From Thermoanaerobaculia bacterium (GTDB lineage Bacteria > Acidobacteriota > Thermoanaerobaculia > UBA5066), in assembly GCA_038245905.1 (NCBI GenBank), contig JBBRRY010000002.1, positions 64,001-128,000 on the forward strand: a DNA stretch of 64,000 nt. The letters run 5' to 3'. Positions 9,104-47,498 of the stretch are shown piece after piece. The position numbers and the translations under genes were made by a program. Position 1 is the first letter of the stretch. Each line of letters starts with the position of its first letter. The notes under the pieces were generated by a model, which worked only from the letters and a program-made list of their open reading frames with translations, was not told the DNA's origin and did not search any database.

Positions 9104-9104
9104 G

Positions 9105-28663: not shown

Positions 28664-30765
28664 GCGTTCCCGAACGCAGGCCGGCGCCGCGGAACGAGCA
28701 GGGCGGTGGCGAGCGCCAGCGCGGTGGCTGCAGAGATCATCGCCCCGATCTTCACCCACCGCGTGTCGGGCCGCAAACGCACCGCATGACGCCCCGGAGG
28801 GACGGCCAGGCCCGCGAACCCGAACGCGACCCGCGAGACGCGGGCCGGGCGGCCGTCGATCGTGGCCTCTTCCGCGGCCTCCCACAGCCGGTACAGCATG
28901 AGAAAGCCCGGACCCGGCCCCTCGACCTCGACGTCGAGAAAGAGCCCCGAGGGGCGGTCGTCGACCGCAAGGATCCGGCCCGCCGCGGGCGCGGCAGAAA
29001 CCCCCGGGACCGCTTCGTCGGCGTACGCGGTGTCGACGGGAAAGCCTTCCTCGAGCAGCCGCTTGAACACCGCGCGCCGGTCCGTAGATGCCACGAGCCT
29101 CCCTGCGAACCGGTACGGCGGAACCGGGTTCACGATCCGCTCGAGGCGCGGCCGGTAGCGCCCGTCCTCTCCCCGTTCGCTGCGGACGATCGCCGTGACG
29201 CCGACGCCCCGTACAAGGCGCTGGGCGAGCGGCGGCGTTTCCCGAACGGCGCGGGACAGAAGGCTCGACCACTCGAACGCCTCGAGGGGAAGCGACAGGT
29301 CGTAATCGACCTCGAACTGATAGCCGACCCCGAACAGCGATCCGTATGCCGGGAGCAGAGACTGCCGGCCGACGCGGGTCGCCGACTCGAGGTCACGCAG
29401 GTCGTACACCGGGACGGGCGCATAGCTGTCCCGGAAAAAAAGGCGCGGCGGGGGCGCGCCGGGGGCGACCGGGACGAGTGAGGACAGGAGCGCCGGAACG
29501 CGCGCGATCACGGAAGCGTCGTCGAGCGGCACGAGGCGCCGCGCCATGCCCTCGCGATCGATGAAAATCGCGAAAGCGAGGAGCAGCAAGACGACGCGAA
29601 GGGCGCGGGGCGAGACGGTTTCCGCGAGGCGCCTCAGCCCGAGCGCGGCGAGCCAGGCGAGACCGAATCCCGCGAGGATCAGGTGCCTTTCCGGATAGCG
29701 GATCCAGCCGAGAGGCGGCACGACCCACCTCACGAGTCCGAAGACCGGCGTCGCGTCGCCGAGCGCGAGGAGGAAGCCCGCCAGCGCGAGAAGCGCCGCC
29801 GCGATCCGTCCAGGCCCTTTCCGGACGAGTCCCGCGAGGACGAGGACCCACGCGACCCGCCCCGGCGTCACGGAGGGGAGGTACGGATAATCCGGTATCC
29901 GGGGTGCCGTCGCGACGACCGTCCAGTCGGCGATCATCCCGTCCGACGCGAGATCCGCGAGGCGCGCCAGCGCAAACGGCTTTAAGGAACTCTTGTCGAA
30001 GGTCCGTCCACTCTCCGGCGAACGGCTGCTGCGCGCCGCGGTCGCGCCCCCCGGAATGACGGAGACCGCGGCAAGACCACCAGCCACGAGAGCGCTGATC
30101 GCCAGGGCCGCGAGAGGCCGCGCGCGCCCGCGCCACCCGCTGTGTTCCTCCCACGCCGCCCAGGAGACCGCCACCGCGACAAACGCCGCATAGAGCACGA
30201 ACTCGGGCGCCGTCGCGAGAAGAATCAGCGCCGCCGCGATCGCCACCTTCGCCACCTCGCGCGTACGCGGCGCCTTCACGAGGTCGAAGACGAAGGCGGC
30301 GAACCACGGAAGAATCGAGAGAGCGGACAGCGTGGGCGGAAACGTGGCGACGGACACCGCCGTTCCGCCAAGCGCGAAGACGAGGCCGGCCACGGCCGCG
30401 GGCGCGCGCGGAACACCGAGGCGCCGCGCGAACGCGGCTAATCCCGCGAGGGCGACGGCGAGGTGGAGAAGGATCCACGCCTTCATCGCCCCGCCGAGCG
30501 GCAGCAGCAGGAAGAGAACGTTCGCGGGGTCGAAGGGCGCCGCCGACAAGCCGCCGAGAAGCGGCGACCCGCCCCAGCGGAATCGATCCACCCATGGCAG
30601 CTCCCCGCGCCCGATCGCTTCGACGAGATGCGCCTTCAGCGGAAAGAAATAGAACAGGAGGTCCCGGCCCACCGGAATGCCGGTGCCGAAAAAATCGCGA
30701 AACGGCAGGAGCGCGAGAAGGAGCGCCCCGAGGAGCGGAAGCAATTCGCGGAGACGTGCCTTCAC
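28660..30765 (-). CDS. YfhO-like polytopic membrane protein (putative GT-C glycosyltransferase)
   Basis: RDLLFYFFP..GELPW....GGSP, many TM helices, IRYPER, C-terminal VPPGRHAVRL plus TM. Confidence 0.7.
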   Translation of the reverse strand: MKARLRELLPLLGALLLALLPFRDFFGTGIPVGRDLLFYFFPLKAHLVEAIGRGELPWVDRFRWGGSPLLGGLSAAPFDPANVLFLLLPLGGAMKAWILLHLAVALAGLAAFARRLGVPRAPAAVAGLVFALGGTAVSVATFPPTLSALSILPWFAAFVFDLVKAPRTREVAKVAIAAALILLATAPEFVLYAAFVAVAVSWAAWEEHSGWRGRARPLAALAISALVAGGLAAVSVIPGGATAARSSRSPESGRTFDKSSLKPFALARLADLASDGMIADWTVVATAPRIPDYPYLPSVTPGRVAWVLVLAGLVRKGPGRIAAALLALAGFLLALGDATPVFGLVRWVVPPLGWIRYPERHLILAGFGLAWLAALGLRRLAETVSPRALRVVLLLLAFAIFIDREGMARRLVPLDDASVIARVPALLSSLVPVAPGAPPPRLFFRDSYAPVPVYDLRDLESATRVGRQSLLPAYGSLFGVGYQFEVDYDLSLPLEAFEWSSLLSRAVRETPPLAQRLVRGVGVTAIVRSERGEDGRYRPRLERIVNPVPPYRFAGRLVASTDRRAVFKRLLEEGFPVDTAYADEAVPGVSAAPAAGRILAVDDRPSGLFLDVEVEGPGPGFLMLYRLWEAAEEATIDGRPARVSRVAFGFAGLAVPPGRHAVRLRPDTRWVKIGAMISAATALALATALLVPRRRPAFGNA

Positions 30766-32984
30766 GGGAGCACCCGCGGCCGAGCGAAGAGGGCGATCGC
30801 CAGGAGCGACGCGAGAGAGAGAGCGGCGCCGGAAGAGAATGCGGGGTTCTCGTATGCGAGTGCGATCTCGTGGTCTCCCCCCGGGACGTTCACGGCCATC
30901 AGGTATCCGTCCGAAGCGTGGACCTGAAGATCCGCTCCGTCCAACCGGGCATGCCAGTTCGGGTCGAACGTCCGCCCGACGAAGAGCACGGCGGCCGGAA
31001 GGCCGACCCGCACTCTGAGGCGGGCCCGACCTGCCCGGCGCTCCTCAACCGTGACGGTCCCGGCACCCCTCGGGAGGACGGCGAACTCTGCCCGCGCGTT
31101 TTCGACGTGCAGGATCCGGTCCTCTCCGAAGCGGCCGATCTCGACGACACCGGGCGGGTCGGGCGGCGCCGCCGCCGTCCTCGTGACCGTGACCCCCAGC
31201 GTCCGCAGGCGCGCGACCTTTTCCTCTCCCCATCGGAGTCGGGCGAGCGCCCGGGCGAAGCGCGCCGACGGCGCCGCCGTCATGCGGTCTATGTCGTTCT
31301 CTCCGGTGTATCGGATCCCGAACGCGACGCCGACGGCAGGGTGCAACGGATCGAGCCCGCCGGCCTCGCGAGTCCGGCGCGCGACCGTCGACGCGTCGTC
31401 GGCGCCGTCATCGTAAAAGCGGCCGGATCCCGCCTGCGCGCGCACGAGCGCGACCTCGGGCGTCTCCTTACGGTAAAGGTCCGGTGGACCGGCGGGGCAC
31501 GTCCCCGCCACGCGCCGGCTCGCATCGGCAATGAACAGAAGAGAAAGAATTCCTGCGAAGAGAGAGACGGGAAGCCGGTTGTGCGAGACGAGCCACCCGA
31601 GGGCGGCGACGAGAGCAAGAGTAAGACTTCCTAGAAGGAGGAGGGGACGGAGAGTCGCGGCCACAGCCGCGGCGGACGTGGGTCCGGAGCCCAAGCCGAC
31701 GCCCCATAAACCCTTTCTAAGAAAATCTTCCGCGCCGATCGCCAACGCGAGAAGCGAGCCGCAGACGACGGCCAATCCAGTCGCGCCCATCCGAAGCAGA
31801 TTGAAAGCCTGTCGTCGTGCCTCCACGTCCGCGAAGAAGACGCGGTCCACGCCGGCCGCCGCCGCCGCCGCGAGCGCAAACGTCACGAGGAGCCACCACT
31901 TTTCCGGATATCGAATGACCGGAAAGGCCTGCGCGAGGAAAGAGGCGCCTGGCAGAAACCGTCCGAACGAGAGCACCGCGCCCCCGAGAGCGAGAAGAAT
32001 CGCGGCTCGCCCGCGCCCGTCGCGCCAGGCAGCCGCCATGAAGAGAAGGGGGATCAGCCCGAGCGCGAGATCCTCGAAGTAGGGGCTCCCTGCATCGAAT
32101 GTGCCCGCGCCCCAATCGGAGGCCGCGTCACCCTCTGGGTCGCCGGTGAGCCGCGGCTCGAGGAGCGTGAGAATGCGCGACGGCCGCACGGACCGGAAGA
32201 GGGCGCCGTGCTCGGGCCGCATCTCGGTACCGCGCGCGGATCGGGAAAGCTCGAGGGCCGCCGGAAAGATCTGGACCGCCGCGAGGCCGGCGCCAAGGAG
32301 GAGCGTGAGGAGCGCTCCGGCGATCGAGCGCCCTCGCGCCTGCCCGGCACCGAAGGCCGCGATCGCGAAGAAGGCCGCCGCGCCCATCAGCGTGACGGCC
32401 GGTTCACCGCCGAGCGCCGAAAGACCGAAGGCGAGAGCCGCGAAGGCGCGCGCGCGGCTGCGGGAAGCCGCGTCGGAAGAGGCAAGACGCGGAGCCTCGG
32501 CGAGCGCGAAGGCGAGCGGAAGAACGGCCGCGCACGTCGTCGCGTATATGGGAAGCGTCTGAAACACGCCCGAGAAAAGCAGCACGAGCGTCCCTGCGGC
32601 CGACGCCTGGGGCGAGAGCCCGAGACGCCACATGGAAAGGAAGAAGACGGCGAGGACGAGGAAGATACTGACGAAAGCGACAGCAGTCGGAGAGAGCACG
32701 AGGAGGAGCGGCGAGAGCGGCCAGAATGCCGCCGCGTTCGGATCGGCCGCGAACGGCCGTCCCGACGACATCCACTCGTTCCAGACGGGCATCTCGCGCG
32801 ACCCGAGGAGCCGCGCCAGGACGAGTCTCCATGGTACGAAGAAGAAGCCCGCATCGCGCCGATACAGCGTGCCGCCGGTCAGGAACGGAGCGAAGCGGAT
32901 CGCGGCGGCCGCGAACACGGCCGCGAATGCCCACCAGAAAGAGCTCGTGCGGAGGCGAGGGGGCTCTTCCGATGCCGGCGTCAC
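30762..32984 (-). CDS. YfhO-like polytopic membrane protein (putative GT-C glycosyltransferase)
   Basis: RDAGFFFVP..MPVWNEWMSSGRPF, IRYPEK, FDPNWHA..DG, VPGGDHEI; GTG start at 32984 inferred. Confidence 0.72.
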   Translation of the reverse strand: MTPASEEPPRLRTSSFWWAFAAVFAAAAIRFAPFLTGGTLYRRDAGFFFVPWRLVLARLLGSREMPVWNEWMSSGRPFAADPNAAAFWPLSPLLLVLSPTAVAFVSIFLVLAVFFLSMWRLGLSPQASAAGTLVLLFSGVFQTLPIYATTCAAVLPLAFALAEAPRLASSDAASRSRARAFAALAFGLSALGGEPAVTLMGAAAFFAIAAFGAGQARGRSIAGALLTLLLGAGLAAVQIFPAALELSRSARGTEMRPEHGALFRSVRPSRILTLLEPRLTGDPEGDAASDWGAGTFDAGSPYFEDLALGLIPLLFMAAAWRDGRGRAAILLALGGAVLSFGRFLPGASFLAQAFPVIRYPEKWWLLVTFALAAAAAAGVDRVFFADVEARRQAFNLLRMGATGLAVVCGSLLALAIGAEDFLRKGLWGVGLGSGPTSAAAVAATLRPLLLLGSLTLALVAALGWLVSHNRLPVSLFAGILSLLFIADASRRVAGTCPAGPPDLYRKETPEVALVRAQAGSGRFYDDGADDASTVARRTREAGGLDPLHPAVGVAFGIRYTGENDIDRMTAAPSARFARALARLRWGEEKVARLRTLGVTVTRTAAAPPDPPGVVEIGRFGEDRILHVENARAEFAVLPRGAGTVTVEERRAGRARLRVRVGLPAAVLFVGRTFDPNWHARLDGADLQVHASDGYLMAVNVPGGDHEIALAYENPAFSSGAALSLASLLAIALFARPRVLP
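31623..31730. repeat. Intragenic AT-rich inverted motif pair, copy C
   Basis: AAGACTTCCTAGAAGG (31623-31638) and CCCTTTCTAAGAAAATCTTC (31711-31730). Confidence 0.55.
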
Positions 32985-32989
32985 GTCAC

Positions 32990-34393
32990 TCAGGGCTTCC
33001 GCGCGAGCACCAGAAGCGACATCCCGAACGACGGCTCCGACTTTTCCTCCGCGCGAAGGAGGGGCATCAGCCATTTGAAAGCGCCCAGCTGTCTCTTCGG
33101 CAGGACACGGCGCTTCAGAACGCGCGAATTCAGCCACCAGCCCAGAACGCCGGGTCGATTCAGGTACCGGACCGATTCCACCGCAAACCCGGCGCGCGCG
33201 ACGAGCGTCGAGAGGGCCCCCTTTTCATAGCGGCGGTAGTGGCGCAGATTCTCGTCGAGCGTGCCGTAGAGCGCCGGCAGGGCCGGCACGAGCAGCGCGA
33301 GGTGCCCTCCGGGCTGGAGAACGCGCAGGAAGTCGGCAAGCGTCCCGGCGTCGTCCTCGATGTGCTCGAGCACGTTCAGACAGACGATCGTGTCGATGCG
33401 CTCCTTCTCCAGGTCGGCGCGATCCTCCCCGGTGAGCGGAAACCGGAATGAGGCGACACGCACGTGGACCTGTTTCTCGAAGCGGTTGAGGAGCTCCCGC
33501 ACGTAGTGCGGCTCGATATCCGACGCGACGACGCGTTCCCGGTCCGCGAAAAAGCGGGTCTGGTTCCCCACTCCCGATCCGACCTCGAGGACGCGCGACC
33601 CGAGCCAGGCTTCGAAACGGTCGTGAATCCACCGGTTGTATACGGACAGCTCGCTCATCCGCCTGAGCGTGATGGCGCCGACGTCGCCCTCGGGCGCCTC
33701 CCAGCGGAAGTACTTGAGGATCGTCCAGACCGCCTGAAACGCGTCCCTGAGGCCGATTTTCTTCCCTTCCTCGTAGGTCCGGCCGTTGTAGGAGATGGGA
33801 ACCTCGTAGATCCGGACGCGCATGCGCGCCACCTTGCACGTGATCTCGGGTTCGACGCCGAACCGCTGGGACCTGAGGTCCAGCCGGTCCACGACTCCGC
33901 GCGTCATGACCTTGTAACACGTCTCCATGTCGGAAAGGTTCAGGTCCGTGAACACGTTCGACATGAACGTGAGAAGGCGGTTGCCCACCGTGTGCCAGAA
34001 GTAGAGGACGCGGTGCCCGTGCGGACTGCCGAGAAAACGGGATCCGTACACGACCTCGGCCTTCCCCGAAAGAATGGGCCTCAGGAGAACCGGATATTCC
34101 TCGGGGTCGTACTCGAGATCGGCGTCCTGGATCACGACAAAGTCGCCCGTCGAGGCGCGCATGCCGGCCCAGACCGCCGCGCCCTTCCCCAGGTTGCGTG
34201 TCTGCAGGAGAACACGCACGCCGTTCTTGCCGTCGAGCTCCCGGAGAATGTCGCGGGTGCCGTCCGTCGAGCCGTCGTCGACGATCACGATCTCGCGCTC
34301 GAGATCCCCGAGGTCCACCGCGAGAACCTGCGCAAGGATCTCGCGAATCGTCCGGCGTTCGTTGAACGCCGGCATCACGATCGACAACTTCAT
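32990..34393 (-). CDS. GT2 (DPM1-like) glycosyltransferase fused to class I SAM methyltransferase
   Basis: IVMPAFNE, DDGSTDGT, QDADLEYDP, DMETCYK; then VLEVGSGVG, LNVLEHI, HYRRY. Confidence 0.88.
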   Translation of the reverse strand: MKLSIVMPAFNERRTIREILAQVLAVDLGDLEREIVIVDDGSTDGTRDILRELDGKNGVRVLLQTRNLGKGAAVWAGMRASTGDFVVIQDADLEYDPEEYPVLLRPILSGKAEVVYGSRFLGSPHGHRVLYFWHTVGNRLLTFMSNVFTDLNLSDMETCYKVMTRGVVDRLDLRSQRFGVEPEITCKVARMRVRIYEVPISYNGRTYEEGKKIGLRDAFQAVWTILKYFRWEAPEGDVGAITLRRMSELSVYNRWIHDRFEAWLGSRVLEVGSGVGNQTRFFADRERVVASDIEPHYVRELLNRFEKQVHVRVASFRFPLTGEDRADLEKERIDTIVCLNVLEHIEDDAGTLADFLRVLQPGGHLALLVPALPALYGTLDENLRHYRRYEKGALSTLVARAGFAVESVRYLNRPGVLGWWLNSRVLKRRVLPKRQLGAFKWLMPLLRAEEKSEPSFGMSLLVLARKP

Positions 34394-34398: not shown

Positions 34399-36129
34399 CT
34401 ATCTCTTCTGCTCTTTCAGATCGTAAAGAACGATGGAGTATCCCACGCGATCGATTGGCATTCCCCGCGTCAAAACCGCCTGGCGAAGGCGGAAGAGGCC
34501 CGCGGCACCGGCAGGATCTCCGTGAAACGCCGTCGCCTCAGGGCCGCAGCACATCAGGAACGAGGAGACCGCCCAGAGACCCGGCCGGACCGGCGCGCCG
34601 GCGGGCGCGAACACGGTCGCTCTCGGCGCGTAATACGGCACGTCCCCGCCGCCGAAATACGCGATCGTCGTCCGCTCCTCGTCCCCACGCTCCCGCAGCC
34701 GGCGCGCGAGACGCTCGAGGTCCTGCCCCCAGTCGAGATTCGAATCATTGAGCCAGACCGCGCCGTTCGCCGGGCCTCCGACCGCCTCGTTGAAAAACGA
34801 GAGCTCGTGAGGGTGCACGCGCAGGGTCTCGCCGAGCTGCAGCACGGCCCCGGCAAGAAGCACGGCCGCCGCCGCACGCGCCGGAAGCGCACGGAAGAGG
34901 ACGAGGACGGCGGCCGCGAGAAGGAGCGGATATACCGGCAGCATGTGCCGGATGCCGATGTTGTAGGACGTCGCCATCCCGGTCAGGAACAGATAGGCCG
35001 GAGGGAGCACGAGCGTCAGGAGGACGAGGTCTGGCCGCACCCGCCTGAAGGCGGCTACGCCGCAGGCGACGACGAGGATCGCGAGAAATCCGAGCGAGCT
35101 CTTCACCGCGAACGCGACGAAGAAATACTCCCAGAATCCGTCCACGGAGAGCCTGCCGTGGAGGAAATTCACGCCGCCGCCCGTCCGGTTCTGGACCGCG
35201 ATCCCGGCGAGTCCCGCCGCGTAGTGACCCGCCTCCTTCGAAACCCGCGAGATCGCGAGAATCCTGCCGATCGTCTCTTCGGGCGCCTGCCGCGAAACGA
35301 GAAAGATCCGCACGGCCTTCGCGGCCTCGGGCCCGCTCATGTGGCGCATCGCGACTGCGTAGCTTCCGAAGAGCACGACGGCCGATGCCGCGCCCGCGAG
35401 GAGAAGGCCGCGCAGCGCGACGAGATCGGGAGGGCGGCCCGCACGTGCGGCCTCACGGCGCTCCCTGAGAAGGCCGACGAGAGCGAGGAGCACGACCATC
35501 GGGACGAGAAGGACACACGAGAACTTCGCGGCAAGGCTCGCGCCCAGCGCGAGGCCCGTGGCCGCCCAAAGGCCGAGGGACCCCCGCTCGAGAGCGCGCA
35601 AGGCCAGCACGAGCGTGGCGAAGAATCCGAGAGACGCCGCGAGGTCGGTATGCACCACGCCCGCGTGCGCCAGAAGGTTCGGTTCGAAGGCCAGAACCGC
35701 CGCGGTGAGGATTCCGGCGAGATCACCCGCCCAGCCCCGCACGGTCCACCCGGCCGAGGCGACGAGAATGAAGAAGAGCACCGCGACAGGCGCGCGGGCG
35801 ACACCGAAGAGCTTCCCGGGCGCGAGCATCGAGTGAAAGCTGAAGGGCCGAGGCTGCTCGGCCATTGCCATGGAAAATGGGATTTCCATCTTCGGCGCGC
35901 GACCGCCCGCCGCACGCACCGCGAACCCGGAGAGGAGCTTCACGAGCGGCGGGTGCTCGAGATTCGCATAGTACGTGCCCGCGATCGCATACTCCGCCGC
36001 CGCGAGCGTGTGGAAGGGCTCGTCCATCGTCGGGCTGTCGAGGCGCGTGTGGTCGACGACCAGGGCGACGCCGCACGCGGCCAGAACGAGCACGGCCGAA
36101 CGAAACCTCACGCGGCGGGCCACGGACAC
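34399..36129 (-). CDS. PMT/ArnT-like GT-C glycosyltransferase
   Basis: SPTMDEPFH, EHPPLVK, HTD, AKFS, IGIRHMLP, DSNLDWGQD. Confidence 0.78.
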   Translation of the reverse strand: MSVARRVRFRSAVLVLAACGVALVVDHTRLDSPTMDEPFHTLAAAEYAIAGTYYANLEHPPLVKLLSGFAVRAAGGRAPKMEIPFSMAMAEQPRPFSFHSMLAPGKLFGVARAPVAVLFFILVASAGWTVRGWAGDLAGILTAAVLAFEPNLLAHAGVVHTDLAASLGFFATLVLALRALERGSLGLWAATGLALGASLAAKFSCVLLVPMVVLLALVGLLRERREAARAGRPPDLVALRGLLLAGAASAVVLFGSYAVAMRHMSGPEAAKAVRIFLVSRQAPEETIGRILAISRVSKEAGHYAAGLAGIAVQNRTGGGVNFLHGRLSVDGFWEYFFVAFAVKSSLGFLAILVVACGVAAFRRVRPDLVLLTLVLPPAYLFLTGMATSYNIGIRHMLPVYPLLLAAAVLVLFRALPARAAAAVLLAGAVLQLGETLRVHPHELSFFNEAVGGPANGAVWLNDSNLDWGQDLERLARRLRERGDEERTTIAYFGGGDVPYYAPRATVFAPAGAPVRPGLWAVSSFLMCCGPEATAFHGDPAGAAGLFRLRQAVLTRGMPIDRVGYSIVLYDLKEQKR

Positions 36130-36178
36130 CGTGGGATTGTAGGGGGAGTGAGTCGCCGGCCCTGTTACGCTCGAGTCC

Positions 36179-38095
36179 GTGAGCGCGCGCTCCGGAGGTC
36201 CCTCGCGGAACGGGTGGTTCGTCCTCCTGATGTTTCTCGCGGCCCTCGCACTCCGCCTCGCGCCCTTCTCCGCAGCGACGGCACCGGGATGGCGGCTCCT
36301 GTCGCCGGACTGCTATGGCCATCTCAGGCGCACGGTCTCGGTCGCCCGCAACTTCCCACGCGTTCCCGTCCGCGATTCGTATCTCAACCATCCCGAAGGC
36401 GGCGTCTTCATCTGGCCACCGGCATTCGACCTCCTCGCTGGCGGTATTTCGCGCGCTCTCTACGGGCGCACGGCGACGACGGAACAGGTCTTGCGGGTCG
36501 CGGCCATCCTCCCCGCGCTCCTGGGCGCTCTCCACGTCATCCCTCTCTTCGCAGTTGCCAGAAGGACCCTAGGCAGGCGCCGCGCGCGGATCGCGACCGT
36601 CGCTTATGCCGCGATTCCGGCCGCCGTCCTCTGGGGAGGTTTCGGACATTTCGACCATCATGTCGCCGAGGCGCTCAACTTGCTCCTCGTCCTCGCGGCC
36701 GGTGTTTGGACCGTGGGCGCGCGCGGGGGCGCTCGATTCGCGGGCGCCGCTGTCTTCGGCGCGGCGATCGCCCTCGCCGTCCTCACGTGGCAGGGGGCCG
36801 TGTTCGTGGCCGGCCTCTCGTTTCTGTGGGCGGCTCTCGCACTCGGTGAGGCCGCGGCTGTCGCCGGCCTCGTCGCGGCCGCGCTCGTCGCTCTTGGAAC
36901 CGTGACGACGCTCCCGGGCGGACCCGTGCCTTTTTCGTTCGTCTCGTTCGGCTGGTTCCAACCGCTGCTTCTCGCGGGAGCCTCCGTGCCGCTCCTCGCG
37001 CTGGCCGCGTGGCGCACCGAGTCCGCGTGGAGACGGGCTCTCTGGGGACTGCTCGCGGTTGCCGGCCTGGCCGTGACCATGCCAAACGCGCATCGCCTCC
37101 TCGCCGCTGTCTTCCGCGGGGGAGCGTATGTCTTCAAGGAGAGCGTGGGCGGGAACGCAAACGATTTCGCAGACGGCGGTTTCCTCTCCTATCCGCCGGA
37201 GTTCCTGCGCCTCATCGCCGAGTCCCAGCCGCTCGTTCGCGGCTGGAAATCGTTCGAACGCGCCCTCCGCGAGCTTTCGCCGGGCTTCCTCCTCGTGCCC
37301 CTGGCGGCTCTCCTCTGGGCGAAGGCTGGCATCCTTCGGCCCCGTACGTCTCGTGGCGCCGGCCGGCTTCTCCTCGCCCTCTTCGCCGCGGCCGTCTTCG
37401 CCATGGCTCTTTTCCAGCAGCGTAACGTCTACTACCTCGCCATCTTCGCCGCTCTGGCGCTCGCCGAGGCGTGCGCGCGGGTCGGCCCGCGTGCACGAAC
37501 CTTCCCGAGGACGGCCCTTCCGTTCCTTCTCGCCGCGGGCCTCGTGATCGTACCGGGCTGGCCCTATCTCCAAAGGGCCCGCACGTTCGCGGACGGCCCG
37601 GGCGACGACTTTCTCGACCTCTTCGCGAGACTTCGTGCTCTGGATCCGCCGCCGGTGGACCCTGCGACCGTCCCACAGCTGCCTCCGGGAGCGATTCCCG
37701 GCGTGATGCCTCCGTGGTCCGCGGGGCACTTCGTGACGGCGCTCGCGGAGCGGCCAGCCGCCGCGGACCCGTTCGGCTACGGATGGCGCCGCCAGTGCCG
37801 GCTGTTCACGGCCACGGACGACGCGGAGGCGCTCGCGATTCTGAAGGCCTCGAGGTGCCGGTATCTCGTCACGACGGAGCTAACCCCCCTGCTGCCCGCC
37901 TATGCGGCCGCCGCAGGACGCGCGCCCGCATCCACGCGCGCGATGTTCGCCCGGCGGGTGCACGAGTCCGACGCCGCCCGGCCGCTTCCATTCCTCGAGA
38001 GGGTCCTCGACTCGCGGACGGGCACGCGCCGTTTGGACGGATCCTTCCAGCCGCGATTCCGCGTCTTTCGCGTGCTCGGCCCCGACGCACCCTAG
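36179..38095 (+). CDS. STT3/AglB-like oligosaccharyltransferase (archaeal-type motifs, degenerate WWDYG)
   Basis: DCYGHLRR, FDHHVAE, IAESQP, QQRNVYY, PWSAGH, ADPFG in the order seen in archaeal AglB; many TM helices. Confidence 0.75.
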   Translation: MSARSGGPSRNGWFVLLMFLAALALRLAPFSAATAPGWRLLSPDCYGHLRRTVSVARNFPRVPVRDSYLNHPEGGVFIWPPAFDLLAGGISRALYGRTATTEQVLRVAAILPALLGALHVIPLFAVARRTLGRRRARIATVAYAAIPAAVLWGGFGHFDHHVAEALNLLLVLAAGVWTVGARGGARFAGAAVFGAAIALAVLTWQGAVFVAGLSFLWAALALGEAAAVAGLVAAALVALGTVTTLPGGPVPFSFVSFGWFQPLLLAGASVPLLALAAWRTESAWRRALWGLLAVAGLAVTMPNAHRLLAAVFRGGAYVFKESVGGNANDFADGGFLSYPPEFLRLIAESQPLVRGWKSFERALRELSPGFLLVPLAALLWAKAGILRPRTSRGAGRLLLALFAAAVFAMALFQQRNVYYLAIFAALALAEACARVGPRARTFPRTALPFLLAAGLVIVPGWPYLQRARTFADGPGDDFLDLFARLRALDPPPVDPATVPQLPPGAIPGVMPPWSAGHFVTALAERPAAADPFGYGWRRQCRLFTATDDAEALAILKASRCRYLVTTELTPLLPAYAAAAGRAPASTRAMFARRVHESDAARPLPFLERVLDSRTGTRRLDGSFQPRFRVFRVLGPDAP

Positions 38096-38104
38096 AATCC
38101 GGAA

Positions 38105-38848
38105 ATGCCGATCCAGGGGAAGCGCGTCGCGGTCGTGATGCCCGCCTACAACGCGGAGAAGACGCTGGACAAGACGTGGCACGAAATCCCGAAGGACTGG
38201 GTCGACGACATCATCCTCGTGGATGACGCCTCCACGGACCGCACCGTCGAGGTCGCGCGCGCACTCTCGGGCGTCCACGTCGTGACGCATGCCAGGAACC
38301 GCGGCTACGGCGGCAACCAGAAGACCTGTTACGCGACGGCGCTCGCGCGCGGCGCCGACATCTGCGTCATGGTGCACCCGGACCACCAGTACGACGCGAC
38401 CGTCCTGCCCGACCTCATCGGCCCGATCGCGCGCGGCGAGGAAGACGCGATGTTCGGCAGCCGCATGCTCGGAGGGCGCCCGCTCGAGGGCGGCATGCCG
38501 AAGTGGAAATACCTCGCGAACCTCTTTCTGACCGCCGTCGAGAACGCCACGTTCTATCTCTACCTGACCGAGTATCACTCGGGTCTGCGGGCGTATTCGC
38601 GTCACTATCTCGAGAGCGTCAACCTCGAGGCTTTTTCGGACGACTTCGTCTTCGACACCGAGATCATCGCCGCGGGCATGTGGAAGAACATGCGCATTCG
38701 CGAGGTCCCGATCGTGACGCGCTACTTCGACGAGGCCTCGCAGATCAATTTCTGGAACTCTTGCATCTACGGTCTTTCGATCCTCGGGGTGATGGCCCGC
38801 TTCAAGGCCCGGAAGTGGGGATGGCGGGACGACCCGATCTTTCCGTGA
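38105..38848 (+). CDS. GT2 polyprenol-phosphate glycosyltransferase (DPM1-like)
   Basis: VVMPAYNAE, DDASTD, NRGYGGNQK, HPDHQYD, EYHSG. Confidence 0.88.
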   Translation: MPIQGKRVAVVMPAYNAEKTLDKTWHEIPKDWVDDIILVDDASTDRTVEVARALSGVHVVTHARNRGYGGNQKTCYATALARGADICVMVHPDHQYDATVLPDLIGPIARGEEDAMFGSRMLGGRPLEGGMPKWKYLANLFLTAVENATFYLYLTEYHSGLRAYSRHYLESVNLEAFSDDFVFDTEIIAAGMWKNMRIREVPIVTRYFDEASQINFWNSCIYGLSILGVMARFKARKWGWRDDPIFP

Positions 38849-41145
38849 GCGAGCGGCTCGCGCCCTTCGCCCGGAACCTTCTCACCCCGGCGGCCCTCGC
38901 CACGGCTCTTCTCGTAGCCTCGGCGGCTTTCACGCACGCGGATCTCCTCTCGGGCCGGACGACTCCGGCCTACCGCGACATCGCGACGACGCAGCGGCCG
39001 GCGCGCGCTCTCGCCGCCCGCCTCGGAACGGCGCGCCTCGACCCGTTCGCCTCGTTCGGGCAGACCTACCGGGGAAACCCGAATCTCGTCCTCGCCTATC
39101 CCTTCCCCGCCAATCCTCGCTTCCTCGGCCTCCATCTGCTCCTCCACCTCGGGATCGGACTTCTCGGGACATTTCTCTTCCTCTGCACCCAGGTGAAGTC
39201 CCGGGATGCCGCGCTCGTCGGCGCCTTCGCGTTCGGCCTCTCGGGATACGTCCTCTCCTCCGCCGCGTTCCTGAACGCCACGACGACGATCGCGTGGATG
39301 CCATGGATTCTTTTCGCCGTCCAGCGCGCGCGAGCGGCGGCGTCCCGCGCCGATCTCCTTCGCGCCGGAGCGCTCGCGCTCGTCGCGTGCTGCCTTCTCG
39401 CGCTCGGAGGCGAGCCGGCTCTCGCGGCCCTCGCGATCCTCCTCGCGATCGCGCTCGCGGTCCGCGGGCCGGCCGCCGCGCGCCGCGGGGGCCTCATGGC
39501 CCTCTTCGGCGGTGGGCTCGGGGCGGCGCTCGTCGTCTCGCCGTGGCTCCTCGAAGTCGCCCGCGCCTCCGCGTTCGCGGCGCGGCGTTCGCGCGGCTTC
39601 TCGTGGAACGAGTTCGCCGCCGTCGGTTTCCATCCCCTGCGCCTCCTCGAGACGCCGTTCCCGCTCGTCTTCGGAGATCCCACCCATCTCGTGTCCGGGG
39701 CGTTCTGGGGATTCGCGGTGACGCAGGGCAATCCGCCCTATCACGCCTCGCTCTCCTTCGGCGTCGTCCCGCTCGCTCTCGCCCTCGTGTTCGCATGCTC
39801 GGCGCGCCGCAACGAAGGGCGCTTCTGGATCGGCGTCGCACTGATCGCGCTTCTCGCATCGTTTACGCCCTGGCTCCCGGGCGCGCGCGCCCTTTACGAG
39901 GCCGTGCCGGCCGTCCACGTCCTCCGTTACCCCGTCAAAGCGCTCCTCCCGTTCACACTCGCGCTCTCGGTCCTGGCGGCGCTCGGCGTCGACCGGCTTC
40001 TCGTCGAGGGTTCTCTCCCGCGTTTCCGGCGCCGCGCGGCCGGCCTTCTCTTTGCTCTCGGCGGCCTCCTGGCCGCGCTCGCAATCGCGGGCCGGCTCTT
40101 CCCGGGCCGCGTCTGGAAGATGCTTCTCTCGGGCTGGGACACCTCCTGGCTGTCGGACCCCCAAGTCGTCCTCGCCCCCATCGTGCAGCGTCTCCCGGGA
40201 CAGGCGGCTCTCGCCGCCGCGGGGCTGATCGTCCTCGCGCTCCTTCTCCTCAGAGGAATCGGCGATCCCCGCGGGGCCCTTTTCCTGTTCGGCGCGACCG
40301 CGCTTTCGCTCCTCGCCGGTGCCCCACGCACGATCCCGCGGGTCCCGTCCGCCCTCTACGACACCCCGTCGCCGCTCGTGGCCCGCGCGGCCGCGCTCGA
40401 CGGGCGCGTCTTCGAGCGCGCAGGAAAGGACTTCGACTCGGTGCGCCGCGGTCTCGCGGGACGCGTGGATGGCGACGATCTCCTCGATCTCGCCTCCGCT
40501 CAGGTGCGACAGGGCTGGGCCCTCGTGGGCGCTCCGCACGGCCTCGCCTACGCCTGGGATCCTGACCCGGACGGCAGCTACACGATCCTCACGCGCTACG
40601 CCTACGACGTTCTCCGGCAGCGAAGCTGGGAGCGGCGCGTGAAATGGTTGCGCGCGGGCGCGGTGCGCTCCGTCATCGCCTCGGACGTGCCCGCCGAGAC
40701 GCCGGGCCTCCTTCCCGTCTTCGTGGAGGCTTCCGCCGGCGTGCCCGTGACCCTCTGGCGCCTGACCGCGCCCCTGCCCGGCGTGAGGCGTCTCGGCCGT
40801 GTCGTGGCCTCCGGTTCGATCAGCGAGACCGTGACGACCTTCGAACGGGACGACTTCGAGCCGGCCACCGATGTCGTGGTCTACGGACGGGCGGCCGCCG
40901 CTCTCGCGTCGGACGAACGCGATTCCTCCGCCCAGGCCCGCGTGACGGAGGAATCCCCGGACCGCCTCGTCATCGAAACGTCCGGGGCGCGCCCTGCCGT
41001 CCTCCACGTCGACCGCAGCTTCACGGACCGCGTCGTCGCGCGCGTGAATGGCAGCCCGGTCGTTCCGCTCGTCGCCGACCTCCACCTCATCGGCGTCCCC
41101 GTCCCGGCGGGCACTTCGCGAGTCGTCGTCGACCTCGCGCCGTAA
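38845..41145 (+). CDS. YfhO-like polytopic membrane protein (putative GT-C glycosyltransferase)
   Basis: YRDIAT..., GQTYRGNPN, AFGLSGY, LRYPVK, VPVPAGTSRV; GTG start overlaps the GT2 stop. Confidence 0.68.
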   Translation: MSERLAPFARNLLTPAALATALLVASAAFTHADLLSGRTTPAYRDIATTQRPARALAARLGTARLDPFASFGQTYRGNPNLVLAYPFPANPRFLGLHLLLHLGIGLLGTFLFLCTQVKSRDAALVGAFAFGLSGYVLSSAAFLNATTTIAWMPWILFAVQRARAAASRADLLRAGALALVACCLLALGGEPALAALAILLAIALAVRGPAAARRGGLMALFGGGLGAALVVSPWLLEVARASAFAARRSRGFSWNEFAAVGFHPLRLLETPFPLVFGDPTHLVSGAFWGFAVTQGNPPYHASLSFGVVPLALALVFACSARRNEGRFWIGVALIALLASFTPWLPGARALYEAVPAVHVLRYPVKALLPFTLALSVLAALGVDRLLVEGSLPRFRRRAAGLLFALGGLLAALAIAGRLFPGRVWKMLLSGWDTSWLSDPQVVLAPIVQRLPGQAALAAAGLIVLALLLLRGIGDPRGALFLFGATALSLLAGAPRTIPRVPSALYDTPSPLVARAAALDGRVFERAGKDFDSVRRGLAGRVDGDDLLDLASAQVRQGWALVGAPHGLAYAWDPDPDGSYTILTRYAYDVLRQRSWERRVKWLRAGAVRSVIASDVPAETPGLLPVFVEASAGVPVTLWRLTAPLPGVRRLGRVVASGSISETVTTFERDDFEPATDVVVYGRAAAALASDERDSSAQARVTEESPDRLVIETSGARPAVLHVDRSFTDRVVARVNGSPVVPLVADLHLIGVPVPAGTSRVVVDLAP

Positions 41146-41152
41146 GGGGGGC

Positions 41153-41611
41153 CTACCAGCGGTGGAAGGCGGGGTGGCCCTCCTTGACGGCGACAAACGT
41201 TCCGCGGCACGTCGCCGTGACCTTTCCGCCTGCCTCGATCGTCGCCTCGACGACAGCGCGGTCGCCCGTCGATTCGACGACGCGGGCTTTCAGGAGGAAA
41301 GGCTCGGCGATGGGCGTCGGGCGCTTGAGCGTCACGTGGAAGTCCGCCGTCACGGTCGAGGGCAGCACACCGTCTCCGGCCTTCTTCATGAGGTGCCAGG
41401 CCGCCGTCCAGTTGCTGTGGCAGTCGAGGAGCGCGCCGAGGATCCCGCCGTTCACGACGCCCTCGAACGCGAGGTGGTGGGGCTCGGCCTTCCACGTCGC
41501 GACGACCTCGTCTCCTTCGACGAAACTCCGGATCTTGAGACCCTTCTCGTTCGAGGGGCCGCAGCCGAAGCACCGGGTGGCGGGGCCGTAGGTTTCCTGC
41601 AGGCTCTTCAT
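41153..41611 (-). CDS. PaaI-family hotdog thioesterase
   Basis: CFGCGPSN..GL, NGGILGALLDCH. Confidence 0.85.
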   Translation of the reverse strand: MKSLQETYGPATRCFGCGPSNEKGLKIRSFVEGDEVVATWKAEPHHLAFEGVVNGGILGALLDCHSNWTAAWHLMKKAGDGVLPSTVTADFHVTLKRPTPIAEPFLLKARVVESTGDRAVVEATIEAGGKVTATCRGTFVAVKEGHPAFHRW

Positions 41612-42543
41612 GCGGCGGATGATGCCCCAGTCGCGACGGGGGTCGCCCTTCCCGGGAGCGTCGTCCACGAGAGCGCTTTGACGGGAAGCGTCCCGGCGGA
41701 GAGCAGCGGCCTGCAAATTTCTTCGAAGGTGAGAAACGAGACTCCGTCGTTCCTCCACGCGGAGAGCAGCGAGGCGAACGGCGCGGAAAAGGAGGCCGCG
41801 CCCTCGATCTCCGTGTGGATCGAATGGACATTCAGTCCCTTCTTCACATTCACTCGAAGAAATTCGCAGGCCTTTTCCGCCTGAGTCCCGGCGCCACGAA
41901 GCGGGAGGGCGAGCAGCTCGTCCAGCGTCGGCAGCGTCGTCGGGATCTCGAGCACCTTGCTCGGCGTCCCGTCGGCGCGCATCGCGAAGAACGGGCCGCC
42001 GCCGCGTGTGTCCGACGTGGCCAAGACCCCGTGCGCCTCCTGGACTTCGACGGAGAGGGGCGTCGCCGTCCAGCCGGGCGCGGCCTGCAGCGTCGCGGGC
42101 TTGCCGAAGATCTCCCGAAAGCGGGTGTGCTCCTTCGCGACGACCGTCTCGATCTCCCCGCGCGTCATCTTCGGGAGGTTGTCGTGCCAGTCGATGTGGT
42201 CCCAGGCGTGGATGCCTACCGAGTGCCCCGCGGCTGCCACCTCGCGCATTCGCGCCACGGTCTCGGGGCGGCCACCGATATCGGGCGCGGGGAGGAGCGT
42301 CCCGTAGAGCATCGTTCGTAGCCCGTACGATGCGGCAGGATTCGCGGCGAGAACTTTCTTCACGAAGCCCTTCCGGAAGATCCGCTTGATCGCCTTGCCG
42401 CTCGTGTCGGGGCCCAGCGAGAAGAAGAACGTCGCCTTCACGCCCTCCTTCGCGAAAAGGTCGACGAGGCGCGGCACGCCCTCGAGCGTCCCGCGGTACG
42501 TGTCGACGTCAACCTTGAGAGCGACTCTCGCGGAGCTGCTCAA
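41608..42543 (-). CDS. arnD: ArnD-like deformylase (polysaccharide deacetylase family)
   Basis: [45 protein letters not shown]; arn context. Confidence 0.85.
41715..41865. repeat. Intragenic AT-rich inverted motif pair, copy D
   Basis: AAATTTCTTCGAAGGTGAGAA (41715-41735) and CACTCGAAGAAATTC (41851-41865). Confidence 0.45.
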
Positions 42544-43571
42544 ACTTCGGGGGGCTTGCGGCCCTTGAGGTAGAAGTCCAGCGTCTTTCCGAGGCCGGTC
42601 GGGAAGTCCGTCTTCGGCGTCCAGCCGAGGAGCTTCTTCGCCTTCGCGACCGACGGGACGCGCGTCGTGATGTCCTGGTAACCCTCGCCGTAGTACTGCG
42701 CCGACGTGACCTTCACGATCCGGGTCTTCTTCGCGGCGGCCGCGAACTTCGGATACGTCGCGACCGCGTCGATGAGCGTGTGGGCGAGCGTCTCGATCGA
42801 AAGGTCGGCAGAGGGATTTCCGAGATTGAAGATCTGGCTGTCAGCCTTTCGCTTCGGATTCTCGAGGATCGTCATGAGGCCATCGATGCCGTCCTCGATG
42901 TAGGTGAAGCAGCGGCGCTGCGCGCCGCCGTCCACGAGCTTGATGGGCACGCCGTAGAGGATGTTGTGGAGGAACTGCGTGAGGACGCGGCTGGAACCTT
43001 CCTTCGGCGCGTCCACGTTGTCGAGATTCGGCCCGTACCAGTTGAACGGCCGGAAGAGCGTGTACTGGAGGCCCTGCGCGGCACCCAGCGCCGCGATCAC
43101 CCGGTCGAGAAGCTGCTTGGAGGCGGAGTAGATCCAGCGCGGCTTCGCGATGGGGCCGTATACGAGCGGCGACCGGTCCTCGTCGAACTCCTTGTCGGGG
43201 CACATCCCGTAGACCTCGGAGGTGGACGGGAAGACGACACGCTTGCCGTACTTGGCGGCCATCTTGACGATGCGAAGGTTCTCCTCGAAGTCCAGCTCGA
43301 AGACGGAGAGCGGGTTCTTCACGTAGGTCGCCGGAGTCGCGATCGCCACGAGCGGCAGCACGACGTCGCACTTCTTGACGTGGTACTCGATCCACTCCCG
43401 GTTGATCGAGATGTCGCCCTCGAGAAACCGGAAGCGTTTCTCCGACAGGAACTCCTCGATGCGGTCGCTGCCGACGTCGAGGCCGAAGACCTCCCAGTCG
43501 GTGCCCGTGAGGATCCGGCGTGTGAGGGCGTTTCCGATGAAGCCGTTGACGCCGAGGATCAGGACTCTCAT
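42540..43571 (-). CDS. arnA: UDP-glucuronic acid decarboxylase (ArnA C-terminal domain as a stand-alone gene)
   Basis: [57 protein letters not shown]. Confidence 0.92.
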
Positions 43572-44524
43572 GTGTCTTCCTTTACGCGCGGAAAGATGCC
43601 CGACGGGCGGACGAGCCAGTCGCGGAAGGCCGCGGCGTCGAGATCCTTGCCGCCTTCGGGGCGCGCCGCCAGGATCTCGATCGTATGGTCGTCGCCCGCG
43701 AAGACGATCACGGAGCGCTCCGTCAGCTCGACCTTTCCCGGGAACACGTCGTGCCCGCCGTGGGGCGACAGCCGGGTCTTCCAGACCGTGACCTTCTTTC
43801 CGAAGACGTCCGTGAAGGCCCCCGGCCAGGGTTTCGAAACGGCGCGCACGAGGTCGTGGACCTCCTTCGCGGACTGAGACCAGTCGATCGCGCCGTCCTC
43901 GAGCTTGCGGCCGCCGAAATACGAGCCCTTCGAGAGATCGAGCGGGATGCGCGGCGCGTCGCCCGCCTTGAGCCGCGGAAGGGCCCGTGCGAGCACGACG
44001 GCCGCCGCATCCGACACGCGGCGCGAAACGGCCAGCGCATCGTCCGCCGGACTGATCGGGACCCGTTCCTGGTCCACGAGGTCGCCGGCGTCGGGCTTCT
44101 CGGTCATGTAGTGCAGCGACGCGCCCGTCTCCGTCGCGCCCTTCAGGATCGCCCAGTTCACGGGCGAGCGGCCCCGGAAGAGGGGCAGGAGCGAGCCGTG
44201 CATGTTCAGGGCTCCGCGGCGCGCGAGCGACAGGATGCGTCCCGGAATCATCTTCCTGAAGTAGAACGAGAAGAGGAAATCGGGCTGGACGGCGCGAATG
44301 CGCTCTTCGTCGGCCGGGTCGCCGAGGTCGGCGACGCGCCGCGGCTCGATGCCGTGCTCACGCGCAAGCTCGGCCACGGAATCGAACCAGCGCTCTTCGC
44401 CTTCGACGTCGTCGTGCGTGTAGACGAGGCGCACGCTCTCGCCGGCGTCGAAAAGCGTCTTCAGGCACTTGTAGCCGACGTCGGAGTAGGCGCAAACGAC
44501 GATTCCGCCCATCAGGTCCCCCAC
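43568..44524 (-). CDS. arnA: UDP-Ara4N formyltransferase (ArnA N-terminal domain as a stand-alone gene)
   Basis: [39 protein letters not shown]. Confidence 0.88.
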
Positions 44525-45468
44525 ACTTTCCGGATGAGAAAGCGCGGCCGGCCGCGCACTTGCTGGTAAATCCGGCCGACGTATTCGCCGACGATGCCGA
44601 TTCCGGCCATGAGGACGCCCATGACGACGAAAGCCAGCGCGAAGAGCGTGAAGACGCCGTCCACCTCGACGCCGACGACGAGCCGGCGCGCGAGGAGGAA
44701 GACGCCGAAACCGACGCCAGAAAGGGCCGTCACGAAGCCGAAGAGGGAGAACATCTGCAGGGGGACCACGGAAAAACCGGTCATGAGGTCGAAGTTGAGC
44801 CGCACGAGCTTGTAGAGAGAATACTTCGACTCCCCCGCCGTGCGTTCGGCGTGCGCCACCGGGATCTCGACCGGTTTGCGGGCGTATTGCTGGGCGAGCG
44901 CCGGGATGAACGTGGCCGCTTCGTCCGAGGCAGACATGACGTCCACGACGTCGCGGTGATAGCCACGGAGCATGCAGCCGTAGTCGTTCAGCTTCATCCC
45001 CGTGATGACCGCTGTCGTGCGGTTCACGAGACGCGACGCGGCGCGCCGGAAGAACGTGTCCTGCCGGTTCTCGCGGATCGTGCCGACCACGTCGTGTCCG
45101 GCGTCCATTGCCGCGACGACCTTCGGGATCTCCTCCGGCGGATTCTGGAGGTCCGCGTCGAGCGTGATGACGTACTCGCCGTCCGTCGCCGTGAAGCCCG
45201 CGAGAATCGCCATGTGCTGCCCGGCGTTGCGCACCAGCTCGACGACCTTCACGATGCCTGGATTGTCCCGCGCGGCCGCCTTGAGAATCTCGAGCGAGCC
45301 GTCGCGCGAGCCGTCGTCCGCGAAGACGACCTCGTATGGCCGCGAGAGGCCGGCGAGAACGGGCAGGAGGCGCGGGAGAAGAAGCGGGAGGTTCGCCTCC
45401 TCGTTGAAGACAGGCACGACGACGGAAACCTTGCGGAGCACGCTCGGCGGAAAGGTCGGGACGCTCAT
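44512..45468 (-). CDS. arnC: Undecaprenyl-phosphate Ara4FN transferase
   Basis: VPVFNEE, RNAGQHMAI, LDADLQNPPEEIP, DYGCMLRGY, FIPALA, EYVGRIY. Confidence 0.9.
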   Translation of the reverse strand: MSVPTFPPSVLRKVSVVVPVFNEEANLPLLLPRLLPVLAGLSRPYEVVFADDGSRDGSLEILKAAARDNPGIVKVVELVRNAGQHMAILAGFTATDGEYVITLDADLQNPPEEIPKVVAAMDAGHDVVGTIRENRQDTFFRRAASRLVNRTTAVITGMKLNDYGCMLRGYHRDVVDVMSASDEAATFIPALAQQYARKPVEIPVAHAERTAGESKYSLYKLVRLNFDLMTGFSVVPLQMFSLFGFVTALSGVGFGVFLLARRLVVGVEVDGVFTLFALAFVVMGVLMAGIGIVGEYVGRIYQQVRGRPRFLIRKVWGT

Positions 45469-47447: not shown

Positions 47448-47467
47448 CGGAGGGATTCTACTGGCCC

Positions 47468-47498
47468 AAAGAAAATGGGCCCCGGTTACCCGGGGCCC
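47468..47498 (-). terminator. Rho-independent terminator after TonB receptor 1
   Basis: GGGCCCCGG-4 nt-CCGGGGCCC hairpin followed by ATTTTCTTT on the minus strand. Confidence 0.8.

Follow-up and report, generated by a model that had tools for sequence, protein, structure and literature searches.

How does an enzyme that is built like an oligosaccharyltransferase (OST) choose its acceptor when the motif that reads the asparagine sequon is missing? The question is raised by a gene located at positions 36,179 to 38,095 in 64,000 nucleotides of DNA from an uncultured Thermoanaerobaculia bacterium (phylum Acidobacteriota; contig JBBRRY010000002.1), and this whole stretch is referred to here as the window. 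The predicted product is related to STT3 and AglB. In the part of the literature source used here, the WWDYG motif's Trp-Trp-Asp and the DK/MI motif's second signature residue make up the pocket for the Ser or Thr at position +2 of the sequon (PMC3703281). The window protein carries Pro-Trp-Ser in the place of Trp-Trp-Asp. What has been rewritten is the half of the acceptor site that reads Ser/Thr, whereas selection has kept the catalytic machinery of an OST. We give a probability of about one half to the reading that the protein is a periplasmic transferase which uses a polyprenyl-phosphate-linked sugar and whose acceptor would be chosen by a rule other than N-x-S/T.

The product is firmly placed in the STT3 superfamily, with an STT3/AglB fold, on the basis of profile matches and a structure model. 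The Pfam profile STT3 (PF02516) matched residues 44-243 with 34.2 bits (cut-off 24.5) and AglB_core-like matched with 28 bits (cut-off 27), in agreement with the family assignment of an earlier annotation made from the letters of the window alone, here called the sequence-only reading. The gene was the sole STT3 match in its own genome (96% complete; profile scan, 36.4 bits). About 13 membrane helices are followed by a short C-terminal core domain (residues ~470-638). The AlphaFold2 (AF2) model, built on 24 homologues, had a predicted local confidence (pLDDT) of 83 and a predicted template-modelling score (pTM) of 0.87, and its top Foldseek match was the AglB of Archaeoglobus fulgidus (AfAglB; 7e9s, E 5.8e-19). 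Superposition on this enzyme by VIA alignment supported the OST fold that the sequence-only reading had claimed, with Z 33.5 and a root-mean-square deviation (rmsd) of 3.9 Å over 546 residues of 3waj at 21% identity. The VIA Z scores were 31.0 for human STT3A, 23.8-24.9 for PglB, 22.1 for ArnT, about 21 for PMTs and 19.4-20.4 for DPY19. The C-terminal domain (residues 472-633) aligned with the short AfAglB-S2 (3vu0) at Z 15.8 and rmsd 2.4 Å over 143 residues. In the search by sequence (phmmer), short A. fulgidus AglBs were the only solved relatives, each through its C-terminal domain (3vu0, 3vgp).

Among the features that define the STT3/AglB/PglB family (CAZy GT66), the STT3 profile, the 13-helix GT-C domain with an alpha/beta C-terminal core, and the metal-binding and TIXE-type acidic residues were all found; the WWDYG motif that forms the +2 Ser/Thr pocket was not. 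The protein had also been called an archaeal-type AglB. The closest solved relative is indeed AglB and not PglB (Z 24.9), but the only NCBIfam model that matched, TIGR04154 (archaeosortase-A-associated oligosaccharyl transferase; profile positions 2-431 of 831), gave 180.2 bits against a cut-off of 450. Because this score is far under the cut-off, the term describes a resemblance and not a membership.

The four motifs on which the sequence-only reading had relied (D-x-Y-x-H-x-R, DHH, IAE-x-QP and Q-x-R-x-x-YY) are all present where it had placed them (Table 1). In an alignment of 24 sequences, consisting of homologues at 51-84% identity to the window protein, D159, H161, E348 and R415 were invariant and D44 was conserved in at least 90%. 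R415 of the Q-x-R-x-x-YY motif presumably binds the phosphate of the donor. When 1.84 billion cluster representatives were searched with a profile, 2,721 matched at E <= 0.001, of which 300 reached E <= 1e-30. From the best 150, fragments shorter than 560 amino acids were removed, as were rows in which the columns of the motif or of the N-terminus were missing, and 117 rows, the query included, were left. Of these nearest full-length representatives, D44 was kept in 117, D159 in 116, H161 in 108, E348 in 106 and R415 in 111. The five-residue set D-D-H-E-R was present in 95 of the 117 and in 81 of the 102 that are without WWD, when rows with W-W-D or W-W-N are counted as WWD. The metal of AfAglB is held by Asp47, Asp161 and His163, and indirectly by Glu360 of Thr-Ile-Ala-Glu (PMC8342417). 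The DHH and TIXE-type motifs had been described as archaeal in style, which holds in that the same motifs coordinate the metal there. The predicted AglB-type catalytic centre is intact.

The gene is under purifying selection and is no pseudogene. The ratio of non-synonymous to synonymous substitution rates (dN/dS) was 0.15-0.28 among six orthologues (15 of 28 pairs computed). The random decay of motifs that the sequence-only reading had named as a sign of pseudogenisation was not seen in the conserved alignment of orthologues. The open reading frame (ORF) was intact in three of the four searched genomes of the genus and was split over two contig ends in the remaining one (G154), and full-length intact orthologues occurred across 60 related loci found in a scan of one genome per species. 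Loss of the signature WWDYG could in principle mark a catalytically dead remnant or a scaffold of an OST. With invariant metal and catalytic residues, these dN/dS values, the intact orthologues and the D-D-H-E-R set maintained in most WWD-less representatives, this explanation is hardly credible.

The reading frame showed the codon-position pattern of a coding sequence (G+C 0.81 at the third position, GC3, 0.73 at the first, GC1, and 0.56 at the second, GC2) and its translation was stop-free. The GTG start at 36179 is backed by the N-terminus 'VSARSGG.SR.G.F', which the orthologues have in common. A database gene call (P0004, 621 amino acids) places the start at M18 and would truncate the first predicted helix (residues 10-27). 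Since the G+C content of the window is 64-70%, long shadow ORFs are common in it. ORF 34522-36849 (+) runs across two ORFs that have coding-type GC3 and family matches, namely the PMT-like gene, on the opposite strand, and, in a different frame, the STT3-like gene. ORF 38767-41196 (-) was rejected as a high-GC shadow by its codon-position G+C and zero Pfam matches. Scans of 35800-41800 gave 0 promoter-like sites, and 5 terminator-like sites where 3.7 were expected.

The substitution in the acceptor site was located by two alignments. In the phmmer search 'vmPPWSAGH' was paired, with no gaps, with the stretch 'VLSWWDYGN' in the C-terminal domains of AfAglB-S (3vu0 and 3vgp), and by hmmalign the WWDYG of canonical homologues fell on residues 512-516. 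The sequence-only reading had therefore put the replacement of WWD by PWS at exactly the right position, but PWS itself is not conserved. In the 24-sequence alignment P512, W513, G516 and H517 were invariant, whereas residue 514 was Ser or Ala and residue 515 was variable. Because either Ser or Ala is found across the clade, the side chain that replaces Asp at 514 is itself under no tight constraint. Nor is PWS a singular substitution; the position varies among a very large number of bacterial STT3-like proteins that share a W-x-x-G-H signature, and PWS is its state locally. Downstream of it, in the candidate DK/MI region, helix 536-543 (W-R-R-Q-C-R-L-F) aligned with the D-x-x-[R/K]-F-F of WWD-type relatives; the A. 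fulgidus AglBs have a variant DK/MI motif whose assignment takes a structure (PMC3703281). Position 538 is R in the window protein, where 14 of the 15 WWD rows have D or E, and position 541 of the window protein is R. At position 533, all 15 WWD rows have Q and 18 of 21 PW[S/A] rows have G, while the other non-WWD rows have mostly Gly.

These residues could also be read as a new +2 pocket, formed by W513, H517 and the Arg-rich helix 536-543, in an enzyme that still glycosylates Asn with a relaxed or different motif. All residues of AglB catalysis are kept, among them the D44/E348 pair proposed to twist the Asn amide and the TIXE-like strand, the C-terminal core superposes closely on AfAglB-S2 (rmsd as given above), and R541 falls where canonical relatives carry D-x-x-R/K-F-F. 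Two of the three pocket residues are gone, however, and the Asp position accepts Ser or Ala. Together with the gene context described below, this makes continued Asn glycosylation fairly unlikely.

The WWD-less state is widespread. Of the 117 representatives, 15 had WWD, 21 PW[S/A], 26 x-W-D, 51 x-W-x and 4 another state, so that 102 were without WWD. W513 was kept in 113 and G516 in all 117, whereas His517 was found in 85 of the 102 non-WWD rows and in 1 of the 15 WWD rows. In a FastTree tree of these rows all 15 WWD rows lay within one group of 24 (support 96), and the window protein was within a group of 17 (support 98), of which 15 had PW[S/A]; the tree is unrooted, with many long branches and no named anchors, and displays the clustering of motifs and not the direction of change. 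The nearest cluster in the ESM Atlas had 506 members and was mainly acidobacterial, with look-alike clusters in other bacterial phyla.

Within the Acidobacteriota, 30 of 401 sampled genomes matched the family profile. The match was found in 4/4 genomes of the genus and in 4/4 genomes of the sister family in the same order (3/3 excluding G024). Among 26 ORFs aligned from the acidobacterial sample, 8 had P-W-[S/A]-x-G-H, 5 had W-W-[D/N] and 13 had other states, for example D-W-N-L-G-H, T-W-D-L-G-H and Q-W-H-Y-G-H. The 60 related loci were labelled as metagenome-assembled genomes (MAGs) of Acidobacteriota, Thermoanaerobaculia or Holophagales, bar one labelled Acidithiobacillales. A phylogeny of Stt3, AglB and PglB from 2016 mentions, in the part of it available, only 'a few bacterial homologues' within the euryarchaeal clade (PMC4973528). 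In literature searches, largely outside subscription journals, WWD-less bacterial STT3 homologues were not found described.

By the annotation of its neighbours, the STT3-like gene sits in a conserved envelope-glycosylation locus of Thermoanaerobaculia (Table 1). It heads a tight co-directional trio with a small family 2 glycosyltransferase (GT2) and a membrane protein of ~775 amino acids. The following counts refer to assessable related loci with an STT3-like gene at least 48% identical. The small GT2 was found downstream in 34 of 37 and the large membrane protein in 30 of 31, while upstream the PMT-like gene was present in 39 of 40 and the GT2-methyltransferase fusion in 38 of 38 (69-96% identity). 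In 24 of the 39 loci having both, no more than 36 nt separated the STT3-like gene from the GT2. The combination of GT-C-type membrane proteins, GT2s and Arn genes was maintained down to an STT3-like identity of 50%. The membrane-protein pair at 28660-33137 was also conserved in orthologous loci, and a homologue of the ArnA dehydrogenase was found downstream in 24 of the 60 related loci, many of which end earlier. In the genomes of the sister family the small GT2 was divergently adjacent in 3/3 examined, and the GT2-methyltransferase and PMT-like genes recurred nearby. Twelve loci (106 ORFs) around canonical-WWD and variant acidobacterial STT3 homologues were also inspected; neither kind adjoined a GT2, and only one of these loci, of WWN type (L100), was beside sugar-modifying genes.

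Table 1. Features of the window: the STT3-like gene, its motifs and the surrounding genes.
Feature	Position	Strand	Remarks
STT3/AglB-like GT-C glycosyltransferase, 638 aa	36179..38095	+	GTG 36179 to stop 38095; ORF, Pfam and AF2 model
External loop 1 (EL1) motif D44-C-Y-G-H-L-R50 (D-x-Y-x-H-x-R)	36308-36328	+	D44 is the counterpart of AfAglB Asp47
D159-H160-H161	36653-36661	+	Counterpart of the second 'DXD' of AfAglB, Asp161-His-His163; metal ligands
External loop 5 (EL5) motif L-I-A-E348-S-Q-P	37211-37231	+	Counterpart of TIXE, AfAglB Thr-Ile-Ala-Glu360
Q413-Q-R415-N-V-Y-Y (Q-x-R-x-x-YY), late membrane helix	37415-37435	+	Q413, R415, Y418 and Y419 invariant in the 24-sequence alignment
P-P512-W513-S514-A515-G516-H517	37709-37729	+	Occupies the WWDYG position; first Trp to Pro, Asp to Ser (Ala in relatives)
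A-D530-P-F	37763-37774	+	Aligns with the A-N-N-F(Q) stretch of canonical homologues
Small GT2, 247 aa	38105..38848	+	Starts 9 nt past the STT3-like stop; Pfam Glycos_transf_2 74.9 bits
Large polytopic membrane protein, ~775 aa	38821..41145	+	ATG 38821 overlaps the GT2 stop; coding-type GC3 from ~38800
PMT/ArnT-like GT-C membrane protein	34399..36129	-	Divergent from the STT3-like gene, 49-nt spacer
GT2 fused to an S-adenosylmethionine (SAM) methyltransferase domain	32990..34393	-	Pfam Glycos_transf_2 117 bits, and Methyltransf_23/12/11
Tandem pair of large membrane proteins with a distant likeness to YfhO	30762-33137 and 28660-30765	-	Pfam YfhO 23.8 and 16.1 bits (cut-off 28.5)
Arn-type genes: ArnD-like deformylase, UDP-4-keto-pentose/UDP-xylose synthase (ArnA C-half), formyltransferase (ArnA N-half), ArnC-like GT2	41608..45468	-	
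PMT-family protein	56079-57884	-	ArnT C-terminal match 25.8 bits (cut-off 26.5); 10 kb from the Arn-type genes

The NCBIfam models that the small GT2 matched best were AglJ (71.6 bits), PpgS (63.5) and dolichyl-phosphate hexose transferase (47.8), each score falling far short of its cut-off, and its best sequence match in the PDB was dolichol monophosphate mannose synthase (5mlz, E 4.2e-9). The enzymes named here all charge a polyprenyl monophosphate with a sugar. The GT2 fused to a methyltransferase also matched the AglJ model, with 123.1 bits (cut-off 325). The divergent neighbour of the STT3-like gene matched Pfam PMT with 24.8 bits (cut-off 22.7) and PMT_2 with 23.9 (below 26.1). The ~775-residue membrane protein had zero Pfam matches; it was 29% identical to the 30762-33137 product (E 5e-16), and the latter matched the 28660-30765 product at a mutual BLASTP E of 5e-5. 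These three paralogous polytopic proteins of 700-790 amino acids, encoded at 28660-33137 (-) and 38821-41145 (+), look like an unnamed GT-C-like family.

The scores of the Arn-type genes against NCBIfam models were 202.8 for PRK15394 (cut-off 382), 551.3 for PRK11908 (294), 372 for PRK06988 (316) and 367.2 for PRK10714 (529). An ArnB-type aminotransferase was not found among the ORFs scanned. This near-complete Arn-type pathway suggests, from its gene content, an aminoarabinose-type lipid A modification in this Thermoanaerobaculia bacterium. Beyond the Arn-type genes a gene pair was duplicated in tandem at 45465-55945 (-). Its first member encodes a type I phosphodiesterase/alkaline-phosphatase-like protein with C-terminal tetratricopeptide (TPR) repeats (45465-47447 and 50820-52934), and its second a protein with CarboxypepD_reg and an outer-membrane barrel resembling TonB-dependent receptors (47521-50562 and 52883-55945). 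DedA proteins have been linked to the recycling of the undecaprenyl-phosphate carrier, and a membrane protein that combines a DedA/VTT domain with a rhodanese-like one, at 21944-22750 (+) and 14 kb from the locus, was the only candidate flippase for a lipid carrier that was seen in the window.

Some deviations from the common gene order were observed. An insert of ~1.6 kb that lies between the STT3-like gene and the GT2 in a subgroup labelled Holophagales encodes, for example in L067 at 8802-10385 (-), a Pfam-less protein of 527 amino acids that has at least 11 hydrophobic segments and is read from the opposite strand. An alternative view of this insert as an N-terminal extension fused to the GT2 was discarded, as the frame is an antisense shadow, rich in Arg and Glu and with a GC1 of 0.95, and a second frame was also non-coding. 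In one MAG of the same genus (L036 10890-11581 / L038 9214-11833) the small GT2 was split into two overlapping ORFs and the membrane-protein gene downstream matched only partly, which reflects either an assembly error or a frameshift. Genes with a prepilin N-terminal methylation motif were seen near two more distant Thermoanaerobaculia STT3-like genes (L104 10874-11398 (-) and L093 3066-3854 (-)), one encoding a protein of P-W-H-F-G-H type and one belonging to the 44%-identity group, which may be chance; in L104 there is also a YfhO-like gene nearby, and upstream a gene for a type II secretion/type IV pilus (T2SS/T4P) ATPase.

The gene context bears on Asn glycosylation in both directions. Pilins are classical targets of glycosylation, and the prepilin-type genes adjoining two distant acidobacterial STT3-likes would suit an Asn-glycosylating enzyme. 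The locus of the window is, however, without pgl-like genes for the assembly of a lipid-linked oligosaccharide and has only synthase-type GT2s, and the neighbours are enzymes of envelope glycan and lipid modification.

A ligase-like activity may be envisaged as well, in which an oligo- or polysaccharide is moved en bloc from polyprenyl-(pyro)phosphate to an envelope acceptor and the GT2 serves another enzyme of the locus. Known STT3/AglB/PglB enzymes do move oligosaccharides en bloc, four other polytopic proteins of the locus (one PMT/ArnT-like GT-C and three distantly YfhO-like) could take the products of the GT2, and in 11 loci the GT2 does not adjoin the STT3-like gene in the same direction. 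The conserved locus is nevertheless without GT4-type elongating glycosyltransferases, an initiating phosphoglycosyltransferase and Wzx/Wzy genes, and the tight adjacency of the GT2 in 24 of 39 loci points to a functional pair. En bloc ligation is thus rather improbable.

The transfer of a polyprenyl-phosphate-linked sugar, which we favour, may be depicted as follows: the GT2 encoded 9 nt downstream would, on the cytoplasmic side, charge polyprenyl (undecaprenyl) monophosphate with a sugar, as do its analogues DPM1, AglJ, PpgS and GtrB-type enzymes. Some flippase would carry the lipid-linked sugar across the membrane. Thereafter, on the periplasmic side, the STT3-like enzyme would transfer this sugar or a short glycan assembled on it, by means of its AglB-type metal site, to an acceptor that would not be selected by the N-x-S/T rule. 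The altered acceptor is inferred from the loss of the Trp-Trp-Asp pocket and from the gene context. The scheme follows the three-component paradigm of a lipid-phosphate sugar synthase, a flippase and a GT-C enzyme (PMC11127046).

Several observations weigh against this scheme. The scores of the small GT2 are far under the equivalog cut-offs and so fix neither the sugar nor the lipid acceptor. No flippase of the GtrA, MATE, SMR or Wzx type was found in the window by Pfam scans of ORFs chosen by length and GC3, nor was a flippase found among the small ORFs in the gaps, which were read by eye with no Pfam scan. The coupling to the GT2 is not universal, since the GT2 is missing in 3 of 37 assessable loci and is parted from the STT3-like gene by the ~1.6-kb insert in 11, and homologues at 40-47% identity are without the locus (0/2 to 0/5 by marker). 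The geometry of the pocket cannot be judged from the model, because residues 512-514 of the PWS loop have a pLDDT <50. Also retained are both D44 and E348, which have been proposed as the pair that activates the amide of Asn. The TIXE motif of AfAglB hydrogen-bonds the peptide backbone of the sequon (PMC8342417); as L-I-A-E is kept here, a peptide acceptor stays fully possible.

As to the nature of the acceptor, an envelope glycan or lipid (lipopolysaccharide, LPS; O-antigen; exopolysaccharide) is by analogy with Gtr-, Arn- and YfhO-type systems slightly favoured over a protein with a different determinant. The former is indicated by the Arn genes, by the polytopic proteins (two PMT/ArnT-like and three distantly YfhO-like) and by a locus without oligosaccharide assembly genes; the latter by the retained TIXE-like strand and acidic pair, and by the prepilin-type genes beside two distant acidobacterial homologues. 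GT-C enzymes of YfhO type are reported to glycosylate proteins in streptococci (preprint, 10.1101/2024.05.05.592596). A bolder proposal combines these elements into an archaeal-style protein glycosylation in Thermoanaerobaculia, with a polyprenyl-monophosphate donor and a non-N-x-S/T rule set by a rebuilt pocket of W513, H517 and the Arg-rich helix. The W-x-x-G-H proteins would then constitute a third functional branch of the OST fold beside the N-OSTs and the DPY19 C-mannosyltransferases. We regard this proposal as unlikely.

Either outcome would be of consequence. A glycan or lipid acceptor would mean that the OST fold has been recruited for decoration of the envelope, and a protein acceptor that bacteria have a glycosylation rule independent of N-x-S/T. 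The STT3-like gene and the GT2 of 247 amino acids form a small clonable pair, which makes the question testable and could widen the toolbox of glycoengineering.

Among the known systems, A. fulgidus AglB (AglB-L 3WAJ/3WAK/5GMY/7E9S) shares its metal motifs with the window protein, namely the single Asp in EL1, Asp-His-His and (T)-I-A-Glu, and the short AglB-S1/S2 (C-domains 3VGP/3VU0) resemble it in that only the core C-terminal unit is present. The window protein differs from A. fulgidus AglB in having PWSAG for WWDYG, a bacterial host and an acceptor that, as far as the sequence tells, is probably not N-x-S/T. Campylobacter PglB (3RCE/5OGL/6GXC), the characterised bacterial N-OST, has the same fold but is more distant (Z 23.8-24.9) than AglB or eukaryotic STT3. 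Unlike PglB, the window protein is without WWDYG, and no pgl-type glycan assembly locus was found nearby among the ORFs scanned.

The pairing of a DPM1/GtrB-like GT2 with an adjoining GT-C enzyme in an envelope-glycan locus is reminiscent of the three-component systems GtrA/GtrB/GtrC, CsbB/GtcA/YfhO, ArnC/ArnT, PpgS/Rv3779 and GT136 pentofuranose. In these, the GT-C enzymes listed in the available part of PMC11127046 are not STT3-derived, and a flippase gene, which they include, was not found here among the ORFs scanned. The Agl pathway of Haloferax volcanii is comparable in another way, as both GT2s of the locus matched AglJ best (71.6 and 123.1 bits) and lie near an AglB-like enzyme. In H. 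volcanii, AglJ is a dolichyl-phosphate hexosyltransferase that works with AglB, and the donor is monophosphate-linked. In contrast to that pathway, both scores fall far short of the cut-off of 325 for AglJ and the locus is without elongating Agl glycosyltransferases. Finally, the tryptophan C-mannosyltransferase DPY19 (7ZLG/7ZLH/7ZLI) differs from the window protein in its identity of only 9-11%, its Z of 19.4-20.4 and a kinship to Pfam STT3 that was not seen, but it sets a precedent for an OST-like GT-C enzyme that takes a monosaccharide from a polyprenyl monophosphate and modifies an acceptor other than N-x-S/T.

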